Shown: positions 10,496 to 54,622 of the stretch, one piece after another
Layout of the letters: each line of letters starts with the position of its first letter
How positions within the stretch are numbered: position 1 is the first letter of the stretch
Virus record (IMG/VR): IMGVR_UViG_3300022839_000006
Location: 29,896-93,895 of that record
Length of the DNA: 64,000 nt
Source of the DNA: a virus
Reading direction: 5' to 3' (one strand)
Translations under genes and position numbers: made by a program
Notes under the pieces: generated by a model
Seen by the model: only the letters and a program-made list of their open reading frames with translations
Database searches by the model: none
What the model was told of the DNA's origin: nothing

Positions 10496-10843
10496 ATGAG
10501 TAATGACACAACACGTGATAAGATTGCATTGATTCACGCACACGAGCGCCGCTCTGAATGGCCTGACGCACAAGACTTTTATGCAGCAGATGCTATCATC
10601 GCGGCTTTGTCAAGTGTGATTAAGCCACTGGCATGGGAGAAATCCGAATGTTATAAAGCCTTCGTTTCAGGTGATATGGTTGTACAGCATGAACACGACG
10701 AAAAAGGCAAAGGGACATGGACATTCGGACTCATGGACAATCAACTAATATCCGAGCACCCAACATCAGACGAAGCCAAAGCCGCAGCCAACAACCACTA
10801 TTGCGCTGCATGTCTGTTGCCGTTTGGTATAGTGTTGTCATGA
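10496..10843 (+). CDS. hypothetical protein
   Basis: 115-aa ORF. Confidence 0.45.
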   Translation: MSNDTTRDKIALIHAHERRSEWPDAQDFYAADAIIAALSSVIKPLAWEKSECYKAFVSGDMVVQHEHDEKGKGTWTFGLMDNQLISEHPTSDEAKAAANNHYCAACLLPFGIVLS

Positions 10844-14710: not shown

Positions 14711-14826
14711 ACAAAACCTAATAGTCCAAGTGGGTGTCTACTTGGACTATTTTCGTGACAATAACAGTTGACATCATGCTTTGTAGACTGTAAAATTATA
14801 TTAACAGCAACAAAGGAATGTGTAAC

Positions 14827-14970
14827 ATGAAGATCTTAGCAACAAACAAAGATTTCAGAGTTGAGTTTAACCAGTCCTCAACATATTTCGTTATAGACAA
14901 CAACGGAGATTGCTGGAAAACCTACAAGAGTGAAAAAGCCGCAATCAAATATATGGACAGCGTCGCATAA
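14827..14970 (+). CDS. small hypothetical protein (47 aa)
   Basis: TTGACA-N17-TAAAAT promoter upstream, RBS AAAGGAA. Confidence 0.3.
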   Translation: MKILATNKDFRVEFNQSSTYFVIDNNGDCWKTYKSEKAAIKYMDSVA

Positions 14971-15298
14971 CAGTTTTCATGTGGCACCAAAGGAAATTAC
15001 ACCACGATCTATTATTTTCGTTGATAATGAAATGAATGAATATGATCAAGGTCGAAAAGACGTTCTTCTGGAACTGCTGACAAAGTTCAAGCCCTCACGA
15101 ACTTTACGGACATGCGTAATTACCCAGTGTGATTGTTGTGGGCGACAGCTTCACCCATTGAACACTTCAGGATATGGCACGTGTGATGCTTGTAAAATTT
15201 CACACAACTATGGTCAGGATTCGTTTGACATTCGATTGGCATATATGCTAATAAAGCGCGCAAACAGTATAACCAATTTGGAAACTGATAATAGATAA
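14930..15298 (+). CDS. hypothetical Cys-containing protein
   Basis: 122-aa ORF with GTG start overlapping the preceding small ORF; the true start may be the internal ATG. Confidence 0.4.
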   Translation: MKKPQSNIWTASHNSFHVAPKEITPRSIIFVDNEMNEYDQGRKDVLLELLTKFKPSRTLRTCVITQCDCCGRQLHPLNTSGYGTCDACKISHNYGQDSFDIRLAYMLIKRANSITNLETDNR

Positions 15299-15309
15299 AG
15301 GTGACTGAC

Positions 15310-15504
15310 ATGACGAAAAAACTGCACCCACACTCGGAACTAGAATATGTCAAGTGGCAGGCTGAAGTATTCAAACAGAATGACCGAAATAACAAGGAGA
15401 AGATAAAGAATGAAATGGAAGACCAAATCCAAAATCAAAGCTGGCTCACGAGACAACATGCATCCCTGGTTCGTTCGTGTAAAAAGCTATACTATATCTT
15501 TTAA
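15310..15504 (+). CDS. small hypothetical protein
   Basis: RBS AAAGGTGA before MTKKLHPH. Confidence 0.4.
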   Translation: MTKKLHPHSELEYVKWQAEVFKQNDRNNKEKIKNEMEDQIQNQSWLTRQHASLVRSCKKLYYIF

Positions 15505-15599
15505 GTAATTGCTTTGATGATGTACTGTGATAACTCGTTATGTCCACACTAAGCGCTTAGTGACGCTAAAGGACTGACTCAGTACATCTTCTAAGCATT

Positions 15600-15683
15600 G
15601 CCCAAGTACTCAAGTAGCTGATGTGGTCTTAGCGCCGAGTTGAAGCCTCGGAGATGTCTGTTCGATTCGGACCTTGGGCCCCA
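15600..15683 (+). tRNA. tRNA-like element (possible tRNA-Phe GAA) with an atypically long D-region
   Basis: 7-bp acceptor stem GCCCAAG/CTTGGGC then discriminator and CCA. T-arm is GTCTG-TTCGATT-CGGAC. Anticodon arm CCGAG-TTGAAGC-CTCGG has U33 and a purine at 37. The segment between acceptor and anticodon stem is ~9 nt longer than a canonical D-arm. Confidence 0.4.
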
Positions 15684-15726
15684 TATTACAACTGTCCTAT
15701 AACTTATGTACTAAAGGAGAAATAAG

Positions 15727-16173
15727 ATGATTGAGTATACAGTTAAAGTTAATGACACCGGAACTAAGTCTTGGTATCTCAACGGTAAGCTACACCGAGA
15801 AGACGGTCCTGCTGTTGAGTTGGTCAACGGTAATAAGTTCTGGTACCTTAACGATAAGCAACACCGAGAAGATGGTCCTGCTATTGAGTATGGCAATGGT
15901 GATAAGTGGTGGTACCTTAACGATGAGCAACACCGAGAAGATGGACCTGCTGTTGAGTACATCAATGGTTATAAGTCTTGGTACCTTAACGGTAGGCGAC
16001 ACCGAGAAGATGGTCCTGCTATTCAGTATAGCAATGGTAATAAGTCTTGGTACCTTAACGGTAGGGGCCTAACGGAGGCAGAACATAAAGCTGCTACTTC
16101 ACCTAAGGATACTTGTAATGGTAAAGAAGTAGTAATTGATGGTATTACTTATGTATTAAAGGAGAGTAAATAA
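15727..16173 (+). CDS. MORN-like tandem-repeat protein (4 copies of W-Y-L-N-G-x-x-H-R-E-D-G-P-A repeat), paralog 1
   Basis: AAAGGAGA RBS; internal ~72-nt periodicity; C-terminal LTEAEHKAATSPK...GKEVVIDGITY. Confidence 0.6.
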   Translation: MIEYTVKVNDTGTKSWYLNGKLHREDGPAVELVNGNKFWYLNDKQHREDGPAIEYGNGDKWWYLNDEQHREDGPAVEYINGYKSWYLNGRRHREDGPAIQYSNGNKSWYLNGRGLTEAEHKAATSPKDTCNGKEVVIDGITYVLKESK

Positions 16174-16174
16174 G

Positions 16175-16555
16175 ATGATTGAACATACAGTTAAAGTTTA
16201 TGACAATGGCACTAAGCAGTGTTACCTTAACGGTAAGCTACACCGAGAAGATGGCCCTGCTATTGAGTGGGCCAATGGTTCTAAGTGGTGGTACCTTAAC
16301 GATGAGCAACACCGAGAAGATGGACCTGCTGTTGAGTACATCAATGGTTATAAGTCTTGGTATCTCAACGGTAAGCTACACCGAGAAGGGGGACCAGCTA
16401 TTGAGCATAGCAATGGCGATAAGTATTGGTATCTTAACGGTAAGCTACTAACGGAGGCAGAACATAAAGCTGCTACTTCACCCAAGAAGAAGCCTAGTTG
16501 TAGTGGTAAAGAAGTAGTAATTGATGGTATTACTTACACCCTAAAGGAGAAGTAA
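16175..16555 (+). CDS. MORN-like tandem-repeat protein, paralog 2 (recent tandem duplicate)
   Basis: Nearly identical N-terminus MIEHTVKV, same repeat and C-terminal module, same RBS. Confidence 0.6.
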   Translation: MIEHTVKVYDNGTKQCYLNGKLHREDGPAIEWANGSKWWYLNDEQHREDGPAVEYINGYKSWYLNGKLHREGGPAIEHSNGDKYWYLNGKLLTEAEHKAATSPKKKPSCSGKEVVIDGITYTLKEK

Positions 16556-16556
16556 G

Positions 16557-16613
16557 ATGATTGAGTATACAGTTGAAGTTAGTGGCAGCGGTGCCATTGG
16601 AAGTTATAATTGA
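16557..16613 (+). pseudogene. truncated third copy of the MORN-like repeat gene (18 codons, MIEYTVEV...)
   Basis: Same AGGAGAAGTAAG RBS and start as paralog 1, then an early stop. Confidence 0.4.
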
Positions 16614-17006
16614 TACCATGAAACAGGCGCATTTGACGTAGAGGGCACAAATTAATTCGTTTCGCATGCCGATTATGCTTGTGGTCTGTGTCGCGTCACG
16701 CTATAAGTAATGCATAGCAAAGAAGCACACACCGGAGAATGACAATGACAAACCCAGCACACACAAAAGAGCAGATCGCAGCAGCAGCCGATTGTGAAAA
16801 AACATTCTTGCGCTTGATGAAAAAAGCAGGAAAGCCGGTGCGCAAATGAGCGCCGCACAGGACTACATCAACGATGCCCAAAACCGAATGGAAAGGTTGC
16901 ATCGTATCTCGGAAATGTACGCAGGCACGGAACGAGCGTTTGCGGCCATCCGATGTATTGAAAAGCGAAAAGCGCGAATGGAACCCACTACCACAGGAGA
17001 CAGAAA

Positions 17007-17564
17007 ATGAGTGACATCCCAAACAGCCGCCGCAGTCCGATGGAGCACGAACGGGACATGCCGGACGCGCCGACGAACCGCATTGGGCTGCATGCGGACA
17101 TAATTAACATCCCGATTAAAGAGATCAACGGCCCGTTTTACGGACAGTGCGAGTTGGCATACAAGAATGGCCACCGCGATGCGCGACACGCGGCGGCTGA
17201 ATTGGCGCTATCGTTTGAACGCGAAGCCACCGCCGCGCAGGCCGAGATTGCTAGGCTGCGGGAAACTAACCGCTCACTTAACCGCAGAACGCAACAAGCC
17301 GAGAGTGTCGCATACAACAACGCGGGTCGATGGAAGCGAAAGCTAGAACGAGTGAAGGCATTTGCTGATCATATGCTTACCACCAACATGCGAGTCAATA
17401 AGCGGGAACGCGAGGCAAAGGCTGAGGTTGCCGCACTGCGCAAGCGAGTGCAGGCGGCGGATGCAATGGCGGATTCGTGCGAAACATACTTCGAAAGCGC
17501 ATGTGACATGACCTTTGTACTTGAAAAGCTAAAAGCCTACTGCGACACGGACGCCAAGCCATGA
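17007..17564 (+). CDS. coiled-coil hypothetical protein encoded in the GC-rich island
   Basis: 185 aa; strong G/C third-position bias consistent with coding in this frame; ATGA overlaps on both ends. Confidence 0.55.
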   Translation: MSDIPNSRRSPMEHERDMPDAPTNRIGLHADIINIPIKEINGPFYGQCELAYKNGHRDARHAAAELALSFEREATAAQAEIARLRETNRSLNRRTQQAESVAYNNAGRWKRKLERVKAFADHMLTTNMRVNKREREAKAEVAALRKRVQAADAMADSCETYFESACDMTFVLEKLKAYCDTDAKP

Positions 17565-17712
17565 CCGCAGCAGAGCGCAACCGCCGCAAGCGCCGCAGGG
17601 TTTAAAGCGCTACCTGCGGGGTGGATGCCAGTGGTGTACGCTGCAAAGGTCGAGGCATACGCCACTGGGGCGACCGAAGGCAAAATCGAACAATTCATAA
17701 GGGAAAAAAGAC

Positions 17713-17961
17713 ATGGCCAAATATTTAACCGACGAACAACTTTCCGAAATGGTGCGCCCAGCGACTGAGGCCGTTCCGACAGGTTCGCGATGGCGGCACA
17801 GCAAAAGCGGCGGTGTCTACATCGCGATGCAAGTTGCTCTGTCTGAGGGCGGGCATGAACCTGTTGTTATTTACCGTGAGGATCGCAAGGACGCACCTAT
17901 TTGGGTGCGCGTGGCACGTGACTTCTTGGACGGGCGTTTTATTCGCGCTGACCTTACTTAA
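17713..17961 (+). CDS. DUF1653-family protein
   Basis: RWRHSKSGGVYIAM...HEPVVIYRED...PIWVRVARDFLD matches the YRHYKGG...VVY...WVRP DUF1653 pattern; RBS AAGGGAAAAAAGACATG. Confidence 0.6.
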   Translation: MAKYLTDEQLSEMVRPATEAVPTGSRWRHSKSGGVYIAMQVALSEGGHEPVVIYREDRKDAPIWVRVARDFLDGRFIRADLT

Positions 17962-18025
17962 TAGGAGCAAGCGCAGCCAATGACTTGCCGCTGGGGCGAT
18001 TAATTTAATAATGGAGTATGACAGA

Positions 18026-18187
18026 ATGCAGCACACACTACAGACTGACCTTAACCACGAGATTAACGATCTCATCGAGGAGTGGATTGCCGAAAACCCC
18101 GATGCGACAGTGGCCACAGTTGAAAACGCGATTGTTGACGCCGGTAATGACTATTCTGCCCGTGTGTACCAGAAGTTGACGACGTGA
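18026..18187 (+). CDS. small acidic hypothetical protein (53 aa) in the GC-rich island
   Basis: GGAG RBS; hand-checked ORF. Confidence 0.4.
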   Translation: MQHTLQTDLNHEINDLIEEWIAENPDATVATVENAIVDAGNDYSARVYQKLTT

Positions 18188-18239
18188 ACAGACACCTCTT
18201 CGTGCCGGGTATTACCACAGTCTAATACAAGGAGCAAGT

Positions 18240-18635
18240 GTGAGACTTGCATTTTGTGACGTCGAAACTAATGCTATTGATAACCCAGATAGTATTTGGC
18301 TCGTTGGTGGCAAGATGGCGTGTACTGGTGAGGCATTCAAGTTCGATAATATCCACACTGACTTGGTTGCCCGTAAGGCAGCTACACAGTGGCATCTATC
18401 ACTAGATAAGATGGTTGGTCATAACTTCATTTCGTATGGTCTTCCCCTCTTAAACAAGTGGCTAGACACCAAGCTGGACCCTCAGAAGGTCCTTGATACC
18501 CTTGTCCTATCACGTACCATCAACTTCAACATCGAGACGCCACACCACCAGGCTAAATTCAGGCACACTATTTTAAGGGCTACATTTGCCATGATCCATC
18601 AACAAAATGCTCTTAGATGTGCAAATAACACTTGA
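18240..18635 (+). CDS. DnaQ/DEDD-like 3'-5' exonuclease, short/possibly truncated
   Basis: GTG start after AAGGAG; Exo I-like CDVETNAID and Exo II-like VGHNFISYGLPLL; no clear Exo III. Confidence 0.4.
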   Translation: MRLAFCDVETNAIDNPDSIWLVGGKMACTGEAFKFDNIHTDLVARKAATQWHLSLDKMVGHNFISYGLPLLNKWLDTKLDPQKVLDTLVLSRTINFNIETPHHQAKFRHTILRATFAMIHQQNALRCANNT

Positions 18636-51798: not shown

Positions 51799-53259
51799 AT
51801 GTGTACAAATAACGAGCTGGTCGCACTTGCAACAAAAATTGTCAAGTTGATAGGGAACGCTAAACAACACAAGGACAAGGTCCTACAAAATATTGATTCT
51901 GATCTACACGCACGTTTTGTAGAGTCGACAAGCTTCATGCCTGAGGATACCAAACTCTCACAGAGAGTTGCACATGGCCTGACAGGAATCGATCGTATGT
52001 TGATATGCGTTGTATGTGGTAACACACACATGAGAATATACCCTCCTTCCCAAAGAGATTATTGTTGTAAAGGGTGCTACTTTTCAGACACAAAAGCAAT
52101 GAAGCAACGCGTAAGTGTTGTAGATCAAACTGCACGTGTGAAGAAGATGGCACACACCAACAAAGTAAAGTACGGATACGAATTTAATAGTCAAAGACCC
52201 GACGTCAAAAAACTGTTGAGCAAATCTAAATTGGAACGTACCAATCCCGAGGCTGTAGACAGGCTCGCAGATAAGCTGTGGCTTGAAGAACAATACGCTA
52301 AACAAACCTCCGTTGAAATTTCAAACACTCTAAACGTGCATTACAGCACTGTTCTTTTCCACTTGAGAAAACATGGGATAGAAATAACACCATATGCAAA
52401 CACGAGTGCGGTTGAACGTAGTATAAACCAATTCATACTTGACAGTGGTGCACGAACAACAACGTCCACTCGTAACATTCTCACAGGCAACAGAGAGATC
52501 GACATCTATGTCCCTGAAAAACACCTCGCAATTGAAGTTAATGGGCTATATTGGCATAGTAGCACAGATTTCACCAATTCGGCCAAGCACTTAACCAAGA
52601 CGGAGGAGTGTTTGAGTAACGGGATTCGGCTCATACACATATCTGACGAAAAGTGGTTCACGAAGCCAGATGTTGTAAAGTCTATGCTGTTGAATAGACT
52701 CGGCATGTCTCAGACACGAATACATGCAAGACAATGTACGGTCAGGTCTGTAGATCCGTCTACATCCAACGAATTTATTAACAGAAACCACATCAATGGC
52801 ACAGCAAACGCAAACAAGAAGTATGGTCTATATCACAATGATGTGTTGGTATTGGTAATGACGTTTAGTAAATCACGGTATTCTAAGATGCACGAGTGGG
52901 AGTTAATAAGGTTGTGTTCTGCTCACAATACGGTTATTGTAGGAGGAGCATCTAAAGTATTTCAACACTTCATTAGAGAGCAGTCGCCTATCAGCATTAT
53001 GACTTATGCTGATAGGCAATATGGAGAGGGACACGCATATCCAAAACTTGGCTTTAAATTTTCTCACATTACCAAGCCAGGATATTCCTGGACAGATGGC
53101 AATAAAACTTACAATAGAATCAACTTTCAAAAACACAAACTCCACAAACTACTAGATGTCTATAGTGACAGCCTGACAGAAAGAGAAAACATGATTAACA
53201 ACGGATATCGTTTATATTTCGATTGCGGTCACAATGTTTATGAGTGGAGCCAACAATAA
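51799..53259 (+). CDS. hypothetical protein with Zn-ribbon, HTH and a possible endonuclease-like region
   Basis: CVVCGNTH...CCKGC Cys cluster; HTH-like ISNTLNVHYSTVLFHLRKHGI; IDIYVPEKHLAIEVNGLYWH resembles restriction-endonuclease-like/DUF559 cores. Confidence 0.45.
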   Translation: MCTNNELVALATKIVKLIGNAKQHKDKVLQNIDSDLHARFVESTSFMPEDTKLSQRVAHGLTGIDRMLICVVCGNTHMRIYPPSQRDYCCKGCYFSDTKAMKQRVSVVDQTARVKKMAHTNKVKYGYEFNSQRPDVKKLLSKSKLERTNPEAVDRLADKLWLEEQYAKQTSVEISNTLNVHYSTVLFHLRKHGIEITPYANTSAVERSINQFILDSGARTTTSTRNILTGNREIDIYVPEKHLAIEVNGLYWHSSTDFTNSAKHLTKTEECLSNGIRLIHISDEKWFTKPDVVKSMLLNRLGMSQTRIHARQCTVRSVDPSTSNEFINRNHINGTANANKKYGLYHNDVLVLVMTFSKSRYSKMHEWELIRLCSAHNTVIVGGASKVFQHFIREQSPISIMTYADRQYGEGHAYPKLGFKFSHITKPGYSWTDGNKTYNRINFQKHKLHKLLDVYSDSLTERENMINNGYRLYFDCGHNVYEWSQQ

Positions 53260-53320: not shown

Positions 53321-54622
53321 TTAGAACAGGTTGTTAACAACCACTTTGCGGTAGTACTCGTTCGTTGCAGACTGCAGACGACCAAGTCCTTGAGCGCTAC
53401 CTTCTGCAAAAGGATTCGCGACCATGCCGTAGCGTGTCTTGAAGCCGATTTTTGGTTGGAAGCTATTCTCACCGATTGCACGCACCATCTGAAGCGGAAC
53501 ATATGGGCAGTAGAAGATTCCCGCATCAAATGAAGAGGAGCCTTTGTAGCCGACTACAAGGTAGTTGTTGCCTGCATATGGATCGATGTATACGCGGTAA
53601 CGACCATTAAGAACACCTGCGAAAGTATTGCCTGTGTCATCAACTTGTAGGTTGTTGCTGTTAAGTGCTGGTGTATAATCAAGTACGCCTGCCATCTGAA
53701 GTGCGGAAGCAACATCAGAAGAACAAATTACCAGATTGCCTTTGCCGCGACGAGTAGCTTTTGCAATTGCGTTTGCTTCCGTCTCGATTTGGAACATCAG
53801 ACCCTTGAACTTCTCAACAGACCAGCGACCGTTTGCATCGACATCAAGGTCGAACACACCTGGCGTTGCTGTTCTTTGAGCTCCGACGACTGCGTTAGTA
53901 AAGATTGTACGTACAACTTCACGGTTGATTTCAACAAGAATCTCGCTCGAAAGAATGTTTGCGAGTTCTGTTTCTGCGTCAAGACCGTGAACAGCACGAA
54001 GATCCTGTGCAAGTTCAGTGGTGTATTCCGCTTTCAGTGCGCGTGTTTTTGCTTCAACAGCAACTTTTTCAATTGAGAAAGCCATTTCTGCGAAGGGTGT
54101 TGCACCACCTGCAGCACCAAGTGCTTCTGCAGCTGCTGTGTTCATGCCCGTACCGAAGTCTGCGTTACCTGGAAGGCCTGCTGTGTTGGCTGTACCAGTA
54201 CCACCAAAGGCGGTGTTGGCTTCGTTGTAGAATGCTTCGTCGCCTGCTTGTGATGCATACTTGGAGCGCATTGCAAAGATCAGGCCAGTTGGACCTGTCA
54301 TTGGCTGTACGCCACAAATGTCGTATGCAATCAAATTTGGCATTGCACGACGAACCAGGCTGATAAGTACTGGGTCATAACCAGCGACTGGACCTGCAGC
54401 AGCTGCTCCGGCAGAGAAGCCACCAGTCCCAGCATCGTTGGCTGGCGATTCATTGAGCAATGAAGTCATTGTAACGCCCGTACGATCTTCTGCAAGTGCC
54501 TTCTCAGTGTTCTCAAGAATTGTTGCAGTCACGCCACGACGGTACTTGTCTTTGATTGATTCGAACTGATCGTGGTCCAGAATCGGTGCCCACTTTTCTG
54601 TTAGAAGATTATGTTGACTCAT
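53321..54622 (-). CDS. g23: major capsid protein (T4 gp23-like)
   Basis: IAYDICGVQPMTGPTGLIFAM core, 433 aa, sits at the end of the g20-g21-g22-g23 block. Confidence 0.85.
   Translation of the reverse strand: MSQHNLLTEKWAPILDHDQFESIKDKYRRGVTATILENTEKALAEDRTGVTMTSLLNESPANDAGTGGFSAGAAAAGPVAGYDPVLISLVRRAMPNLIAYDICGVQPMTGPTGLIFAMRSKYASQAGDEAFYNEANTAFGGTGTANTAGLPGNADFGTGMNTAAAEALGAAGGATPFAEMAFSIEKVAVEAKTRALKAEYTTELAQDLRAVHGLDAETELANILSSEILVEINREVVRTIFTNAVVGAQRTATPGVFDLDVDANGRWSVEKFKGLMFQIETEANAIAKATRRGKGNLVICSSDVASALQMAGVLDYTPALNSNNLQVDDTGNTFAGVLNGRYRVYIDPYAGNNYLVVGYKGSSSFDAGIFYCPYVPLQMVRAIGENSFQPKIGFKTRYGMVANPFAEGSAQGLGRLQSATNEYYRKVVVNNLF

Follow-up and report, generated by a model that had tools for sequence, protein, structure and literature searches.

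The window, by which we mean the whole 64,000-nt stretch of viral DNA analysed here, contains a phage-lineage tRNA-Phe(GAA) gene in which positions 2-9 have been duplicated in tandem, so that its single 3' acceptor strand has two possible 5' partners. On balance we lean towards regarding this gene as a relic, weakened or dead, and as the one tRNA that can still be recognised in an array fragment (tRNA-like element, Phe, Ile) lying in a variable region of the phage genome. That the gene is dead or much impaired, and its array in the act of decaying, we infer from three lesions at the acceptor end, two of them at positions invariant in its family, from the loss of its neighbour tRNAs and from the nearest relative, which dispenses with a tRNA at this site. 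The coordinates of the features are given in Table 1.

The identity of the gene lies far beyond chance. ARAGORN called a single tRNA in the whole 64-kb window, this tRNA-Phe(GAA), and the Rfam tRNA model RF00005, whose gathering score is 29 bits, matched over its full length (model positions 1-71) at 15608-15680 with 43.1 bits. The un-duplicated tRNA-Phe of a related metagenome contig, L057, scores 53.1 bits with the same model, about 10 bits more. A family covariance model, R1, was built from the 13 other members of the subfamily with the window excluded; it gave the window gene 88.4 bits (E = 4e-28) against 99.9 bits for the L057 ortholog, a cost of 11.5 bits. The lesions present, namely the 8-nt duplication, the 1:72 mismatch and the A73C change, thus cost 10-11.5 bits in these scores. 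In a permissive Rfam scan of 15250-15800, tRNA was the sole family matched. ARAGORN and the Rfam tRNA model had both been suggested as checks in the original prediction, and both recovered the gene, the latter well above threshold. Both tRNA finders begin it 8 nt downstream of the start first proposed, taking ACTCAAG as the 5' acceptor strand.

Table 1. Coordinates of the tRNA-Phe gene, its parts and the remnants around it (window positions).
Feature	Position	Strand	Basis
Variable segment with tRNA patch and five small genes	15441..18603		blastn of L048 against the window
Left part of array patch, conserved block	15441..15509	+	63/67 identical to L057; L057 vs L011 87%
Stem-closed element, 18-bp imperfect helix (15510-15527 with 15580-15597), 52-nt interior	15510..15597	+	Inverted repeat I1
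Upstream copy of 5' acceptor strand, GCCCAAG	15600..15606	+	Identical to L057 and L011 ortholog strands
8-nt tandem duplication of tRNA positions 2-9	15601..15616	+	L057 alignment
tRNA-Phe(GAA) gene, canonical register	15608..15683	+	ARAGORN, Rfam RF00005, family model R1
In-register 5' acceptor strand ACTCAAG	15608-15614	+	Second, imperfect copy of 5' acceptor strand
U8 A9	15615-15616	+	Canonical register
D arm GCTG / ATGTGGTCT / TAGC, with G18 G19	15617-15633	+	
G26	15634	+	
Anticodon arm CCGAG/TTGAAGC/CTCGG; GAA at 15642-15644	15635-15651	+	
Variable loop AGAT	15652-15655	+	
T arm GTCTG/TTCGATT/CGGAC	15656-15672	+	
3' acceptor strand CTTGGGC	15673-15679	+	
Discriminator C73	15680..15680	+	A73 in 13/13 relatives
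Encoded CCA	15681-15683	+	
tRNA-Ile(GAT) 5' remnant, TGTCCTATAaCTTAtGT...	15693..15716	+	Alignment to L057 tRNA-Ile 657-730

Positions 15600-15683 read GCCCAAGT ACTCAAGT AGCTGATGTGGTCTTAGC G CCGAGTTGAAGCCTCGG AGAT GTCTGTTCGATTCGGAC CTTGGGC C CCA. The D, anticodon and T arms are fully paired, and U8, A14, G18 G19, U33, the GTTCGA(T) motif and the GAA anticodon are all kept; the anticodon sits in the 7-nt loop UUGAAGC, as expected of a tRNA-Phe. The other identity feature of tRNA-Phe, A73, is absent, position 15680 being a C. The acceptor stem with its encoded CCA, the T arm and the GAA anticodon arm that the original prediction had read directly from the sequence are therefore all there. Its suggestion of an abnormal D region in which D-arm pairing fails has to be given up, since the D arm is canonical and identical in 13 of 13 relatives. 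The extra spacing between the acceptor and anticodon stems that gave rise to this suggestion is real and amounts to 8 nt (28 nt, with the upstream strand, against 20 in the tRNA-Phe family); all of this excess stands 5' of U8, the lesion being a duplication at the acceptor/D junction. The descriptions of the element as an unusual phage tRNA-Phe, or as a tRNA pseudogene with an insertion, were both essentially right, with the insertion being the 8 nt described here and the loss of function probable.

The two units of the duplication are CCCAAGTA (15601-15608) and CTCAAGTA (15609-15616), which differ by one C->T change. Its polarity follows from L057 (OFKZ01004981.1), found in a scan of JGI metagenomes, which carries at 572-647 a near-identical tRNA-Phe without the 8 nt. 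There the gene begins after taat as GCCCAAG TA GCTG and ends as CTTGGGC A CCA, followed by tattacaactgtcctata. Pairwise alignment of the two genes leaves one clean 8-nt gap together with two substitutions, A73C and C60T in the T loop, the latter at a site that is variable within the subfamily; the tRNA body thus differs at 2 of 69 positions, and the 9-nt trailer is identical. The window and L057 have in common the D arm, the anticodon arm, the T stem, the 3' acceptor strand, the CCA, the trailer, the start of a tRNA-Ile, an upstream block of ~70 nt and an upstream helix. Features of L057 alone are the lack of a duplication, G1-C72, C3-G70, A73, the T loop TTCGATC (TTCGATT in the window) and intact neighbouring tRNAs. 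The insertion is derived in the window lineage, because a second relative, L011, shares the GCCCAAG/CTTGGGC stem and because the 8 nt are missing from each of the 13 other members of the family. Searches of IMG/VR, JGI metagenomes and GTDB genomes turned up no further sequence that carries the duplication. The duplication is accordingly known from one metagenome assembly, and the comparison rests mainly on one ortholog, L057.

The junction of the duplication is a 6-bp palindrome, AGTACT (15605-15610). The 16 nt can also be read as GCCCAAGT, followed by ACT (an inverted copy of AGT) and CAAGT, with no substitution needed. Read this way, the junction looks more like the footprint of fold-back or hairpin repair than like simple slippage, and an origin of the 8 nt by transposon excision or fold-back is possible on the sequence pattern; it does not change the identity of the element. 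An integrase attachment site or target-site duplication was considered and rejected as the main reading, given that the two copies of the 5' end follow each other directly, in tandem; the partial tRNA-Ile downstream is explained by the order of the L057 array. Among the ten ORFs checked between 11790 and 20012, there was no match to an integrase family. We also noted that the inserted bases TACTCAA (15607-15613) are complementary to TTGAGTA (15731-15737, codons 2-4 of the downstream ORF), within a 16-nt repeat of 75% complementarity. Chance is the probable explanation, because 1.1 kb contain 12 inverted pairs of comparable quality.

The gene belongs to an existing subfamily of phage tRNA-Phe genes. 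Positions 7-27 are invariant among the window, Phaeobacter phage MD18, bacteriophage DSS3_MAL1, Bacillus phage P59 and 10 IMG/VR contigs, and the cloverleaf is well supported over the 14 aligned sequences, with 98.6% of cells paired and 14 of the 21 pairs changing on both sides. The D-arm variant that is the signature of the subfamily, GCUGAUGUGGUCUUAGC, occurred in a single contig among 185,579 bacterial and archaeal species genomes (GTDB). Judged by these searches, the subfamily is phage-borne and nearly absent from cellular genomes. The lone GTDB match, L058 (CAZIWB010000010.1, 1-120), belongs to a tRNA array; its contig, 201 kb long and part of a Cellvibrionaceae MAG, may be a large phage binned into the MAG.

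The window gene resembles the members with the D arm GCUG-AUGUGGUCU-UAGC (MD18, DSS3_MAL1, P59 and the contigs L004-L013) in positions 7-27, in the anticodon loop and in the pattern of the T loop. Unlike it, these genes stand in arrays of 10-27 tRNAs, pair along the whole acceptor stem and have A73; the window gene stands alone, with its duplication, its 1:72 mismatch and C73. Both G1-C72 and A73 are found in 13 of 13 relatives, the window being the sole exception to both, and G1-C72 is regained there only with the upstream copy, 8 nt out of register. Small structural lesions are not unique in the subfamily, because the contigs L005 (7238-7320) and L008 (5680-5762) each have a pseudo-tRNA-Phe that also shows a short internal rearrangement with the remaining cloverleaf intact, and that the family model still scores at 76-83 bits. 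In those two genes the anticodon loop contains 7 nt duplicated in inverted orientation, forming the palindrome AGTTGAAGC/GCTTCAACT, whereas the lesion of the window gene is a direct duplication at the 5' end; moreover, L005 and L008 each carry a second, ordinary tRNA-Phe. Within the IMG/VR, JGI and GTDB sequences searched, a direct micro-duplication of the 5' end that would make two rival acceptor strands appears in no other sequence.

The two 5' strands are not equivalent. The upstream copy retains the ancestral sequence and is a perfect 7-bp complement of the 3' strand, with a connector of 10 nt to the D stem. On the other hand, the in-register copy keeps the usual 2-nt connector and pairs at 6 of 7 positions; A1 and C72 are mismatched, and U3·G70 is a wobble pair. 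Neither strand offers seven pairs and the 2-nt connector together. When the D, anticodon and T arms are held fixed, the cloverleaf closed by the upstream strand has a predicted energy of -24.2 kcal/mol, against -18.1 kcal/mol for the in-register form and -24.5 kcal/mol for the normal cloverleaf of L057. In the constrained ensemble, the pair probabilities are 0.98-1.0 for the upstream copy and 0.0 for its in-register rival, and when 15600-15683 is folded without constraints, the minimum-free-energy structure again pairs the upstream copy; these nearest-neighbour energies leave out tRNA tertiary structure and co-transcriptional folding.

The sequence comparisons establish the identity of the gene, its duplication with the polarity, the origin in an array and the loss of the neighbours; we infer which fold would form, where RNase P would cut and that function would be lost. 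In the window lineage, the 8 bp of positions 2-9 were doubled in tandem, the C->T change arose then or afterwards, and A73 gave way to C73. Bacterial RNase P reads the acceptor stem and T arm as one stacked helix, whose 5' end it cuts, and the D arm is not needed. Because the enzyme reads this helix without needing the D arm, it would be expected to cut 5' of G15600, yielding as its main product an 84-nt RNA with a 10-nt connector, in which 8 nt would loop out ahead of U8. A minority cut at A15608 would remove the competing strand and yield a 76-nt tRNA with A1·C72 locked in. Both products would carry C73, and either would depart from the family at positions invariant in all relatives.

The surroundings of the gene reveal where it came from. 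In L057, the order is tRNA-Lys, a cloverleaf-like element that ARAGORN does not call, tRNA-Phe, tRNA-Ile(GAT) and tRNA-Thr, and the window keeps a patch of ~280 bp of such an array. The conserved block at its left also lies within the tRNA arrays of L057 (380-455) and L011 (1290-1365). It can be read as the end of a small ORF, whose C-terminus (...AGSRDN....FVR.KSY..SF.*) shows synonymous changes and keeps its stop codon. In the window, this C-terminus is fused to MKWKTKSKIK, the start of a backbone gene (ORF 15410-15508), and in L048, the closest relative contig, the same start begins a different gene (10532-10750), which suggests a recombination joint near 15440. That the block might be a repeated promoter was ruled out, as it occurs only once in the window and has no sigma-70-like site on the + strand.

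The stem-closed element that follows ends 2 nt before the upstream copy of the tRNA, and its fold is stable (-28.9 kcal/mol, z = -4.25). Compared with its L057 counterpart (456-569), all 7 differences in the helix keep pairing, among them 2 double compensatory changes and 3 GU/GC changes, whereas the interiors are unrelated (52 nt in the window, 80 nt in L057). The L057 version folds much like a five-arm cloverleaf, and the T arm in its interior, GAAGGTTCGAATCCTTC, is identical to that of the tRNA-Tyr of another contig, L050. The window element probably represents the shell left by a tRNA-like gene of this array after decay, and may have been either a tRNA or a small stable RNA. A tRNA-Tyr in particular is conceivable, but alignment to the tRNA-Tyr genes of relatives gave no clear correspondence other than the T arm shared by L057 and L050.

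On the other side, the window and L057 are identical through the 9-nt trailer and then match at 20 of 24 positions, into the tRNA-Ile(GAT). Homology to Celeribacter phage P12053L, in a cassette of MORN-like repeat-protein genes, starts at ~15709, and the tRNA-Ile remnant is therefore between 16 and 24 nt long. It runs into the ribosome-binding region of ORF 15727-16173, whose start lies 43 nt past the CCA. This ORF and ORF 16175-16555 are tandem paralogs (148 and 126 aa) built of 69-nt (23-aa) repeats, WYLNGxxHREDGPAxE, with 72% DNA identity to the P12053L gene; neither Pfam nor PHROG gave a significant family for them. When ORF 15727-16173 was looked up, the source contig alone came back, and a search with the downstream ORF 17007-17564 gave distant partial matches only.

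By its gene content, the window is from a large contractile-tailed phage. It encodes a tail sheath, a portal, a major head protein, a Dda-like helicase, a DNA ligase and a homing endonuclease, and its source is a 107-kb metagenome contig (ena:ERZ27315662:k141_4651). NAMPT and NMNAT/Nudix genes lie just upstream of the tRNA, and by NAMPT the closest cultured relatives are Rhodobacteraceae phages, at ~53% identity. The closest relative contig, L033/L048, shares ~90% nucleotide identity over the NAD-salvage genes and has no tRNA at the site of the window gene; in L048, the whole of 15441-18603 is replaced by ~0.64 kb of unrelated sequence. Moreover, none of the 28 IMG/VR loci that share the upstream NAMPT gene has a tRNA-Phe. 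The proximity to an insertion hot spot in the original prediction is borne out by these comparisons.

Given that the body of the gene is so well preserved, we considered whether it still yields a functional canonical tRNA. RNase P would then cut 5' of A15608 and remove the competing strand, and a 76-nt tRNA-Phe would be charged and would decode Phe during infection. Both finders choose the in-register form, with scores above threshold, and the core tertiary nucleotides and the CCA are all kept. The body is 97% identical to L057, compared with ~89% for the flanks (differences at 2/69 and 11/103 positions, respectively; Fisher p = 0.078, borderline), and this better conservation could reflect continuing selection. 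A few elongator tRNAs of the phage arrays that we fetched also have 1:72 mismatches, such as an A1·C72 tRNA-Gln in L013, and the bacterial initiator tRNA, which works with a C1·A72 mismatch, can be counted in support. However, the perfect rival helix is ~6 kcal/mol stronger and leaves the in-register acceptor stem with a predicted occupancy of about zero; G1-C72 and A73, invariant in 13 relatives, have both been lost; and a related phage manages without a tRNA at this site. A73 is an identity element for PheRS in several systems. The arguments from PheRS and RNase P are drawn from other organisms. Taken together, we consider a functional tRNA unlikely, although it deserves serious consideration.

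Natural tRNAs with a 1:72 mismatch or weak pair, such as the bacterial initiator tRNA (C1·A72) and tRNA-Gln, are like the in-register form in being unpaired at 1:72 with six further pairs. In those tRNAs, however, the mismatch is conserved and used by their own enzymes, whereas here G1-C72 is the family-invariant state.

Another possibility would be that the cloverleaf, chargeable or not, is kept as a processing element, a site for cutting by RNase P and RNase Z between the upstream small ORFs and the mRNA of the repeat proteins. The best promoter-like site of the region, TTGACA-17-TAAAAT, lies on the + strand at 14768-14796, and it is likely, on the sequence motifs, that the transcript carrying the tRNA starts there. 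Between 14828 and 16400, the + strand shows nothing resembling a promoter or a terminator, and the tRNA therefore probably forms part of a polycistronic transcript that begins close to 14768-14796. The acceptor/T-arm minihelix presented to RNase P is perfect in the upstream-strand fold, and a second structured element directly abuts the tRNA. However, the arrangement is not conserved, L048 being without it, the junction between the tRNA and the ORF is a recent recombination joint, and the present data fit a passive relic equally well. We therefore regard a processing role as improbable. A terminator-like 12-bp hairpin was also observed on the minus strand (14751-14720), just past NAMPT.

The 84-nt RNA might itself be at work, either as a charged tRNA of unprecedented architecture or as a decoy, with its C73, for host enzymes that attack acceptor ends. 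Its fold is the predicted ground state, and the upstream copy has kept the exact ancestral acceptor sequence, with the substitution falling in the in-register copy; under neutrality, however, which copy mutates is a coin toss. We know of no tRNA with a long 7/8 connector, which weighs against such an architecture, and the arrangement occurs in one sequence only. Two reports (PMC10435456, PMC11559606) describe antiphage toxins that target tRNA acceptor ends, although nothing ties this phage or its host to such a toxin. A working 84-nt RNA would thus be a very remote prospect. Finally, an assembly or sequencing artefact concealing an ordinary tRNA-Phe of the L057 type is hardly credible: the gene comes from a single metagenome contig, with no second copy in the IMG/VR or JGI scans, but an imperfect 8-nt tandem copy is atypical of de Bruijn-graph errors, and two independent point differences (A73C, C60T) and flanks that differ from L057 accompany the insertion.

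We therefore return to the relic of a decaying array as the preferred reading. Gain and loss of tRNAs by phages is already well known, and the window gene fits an existing tRNA-Phe subfamily; it is a curiosity and not a new kind of element. The tRNA clusters of T4-like and T5-like phages differ widely in size between related phages, and in T4 the cluster includes genes for small stable tRNA-like RNAs and for a homing endonuclease. The window is similar to these variable regions in being a fast-changing region of a contractile-tailed phage, with small genes of unknown function and an adjoining tRNA-like structured element, although no direct homology to the T4 or T5 tRNA regions was found in the window region. 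The value of the case is modest, as a snapshot of the erosion of a phage tRNA array in which one neighbour has been truncated, another hollowed out and the survivor micro-duplicated. It also calls for caution in annotation, given that tRNA finders report a clean tRNA-Phe in which the lesion is hidden. Should the 84-nt form prove stable and active, it would provide an unusual test case for how much extra sequence is tolerated at the acceptor/D junction.

Some further features of the window and its closest relative were observed. The usage of Phe codons in the window is unremarkable (TTT 270 and TTC 214 in 11,105 codons). The NAMPT gene of the relative is interrupted by ~1.5 kb that is missing from the window (L033 4750-6277; L048 4800-6346). 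On the minus strand of L048 (8222-9469), a 415-aa ORF with a Cys-rich end stands where the window has ORF 14930-15298, and by eye its product resembles a TnpB/OrfB-type transposon protein. The homing endonuclease gene of the window (51799-53259) encodes a 486-aa homing/HNH protein (PHROG 3339, E = 6e-105) and adjoins the major head protein gene (53321-54622, minus strand).
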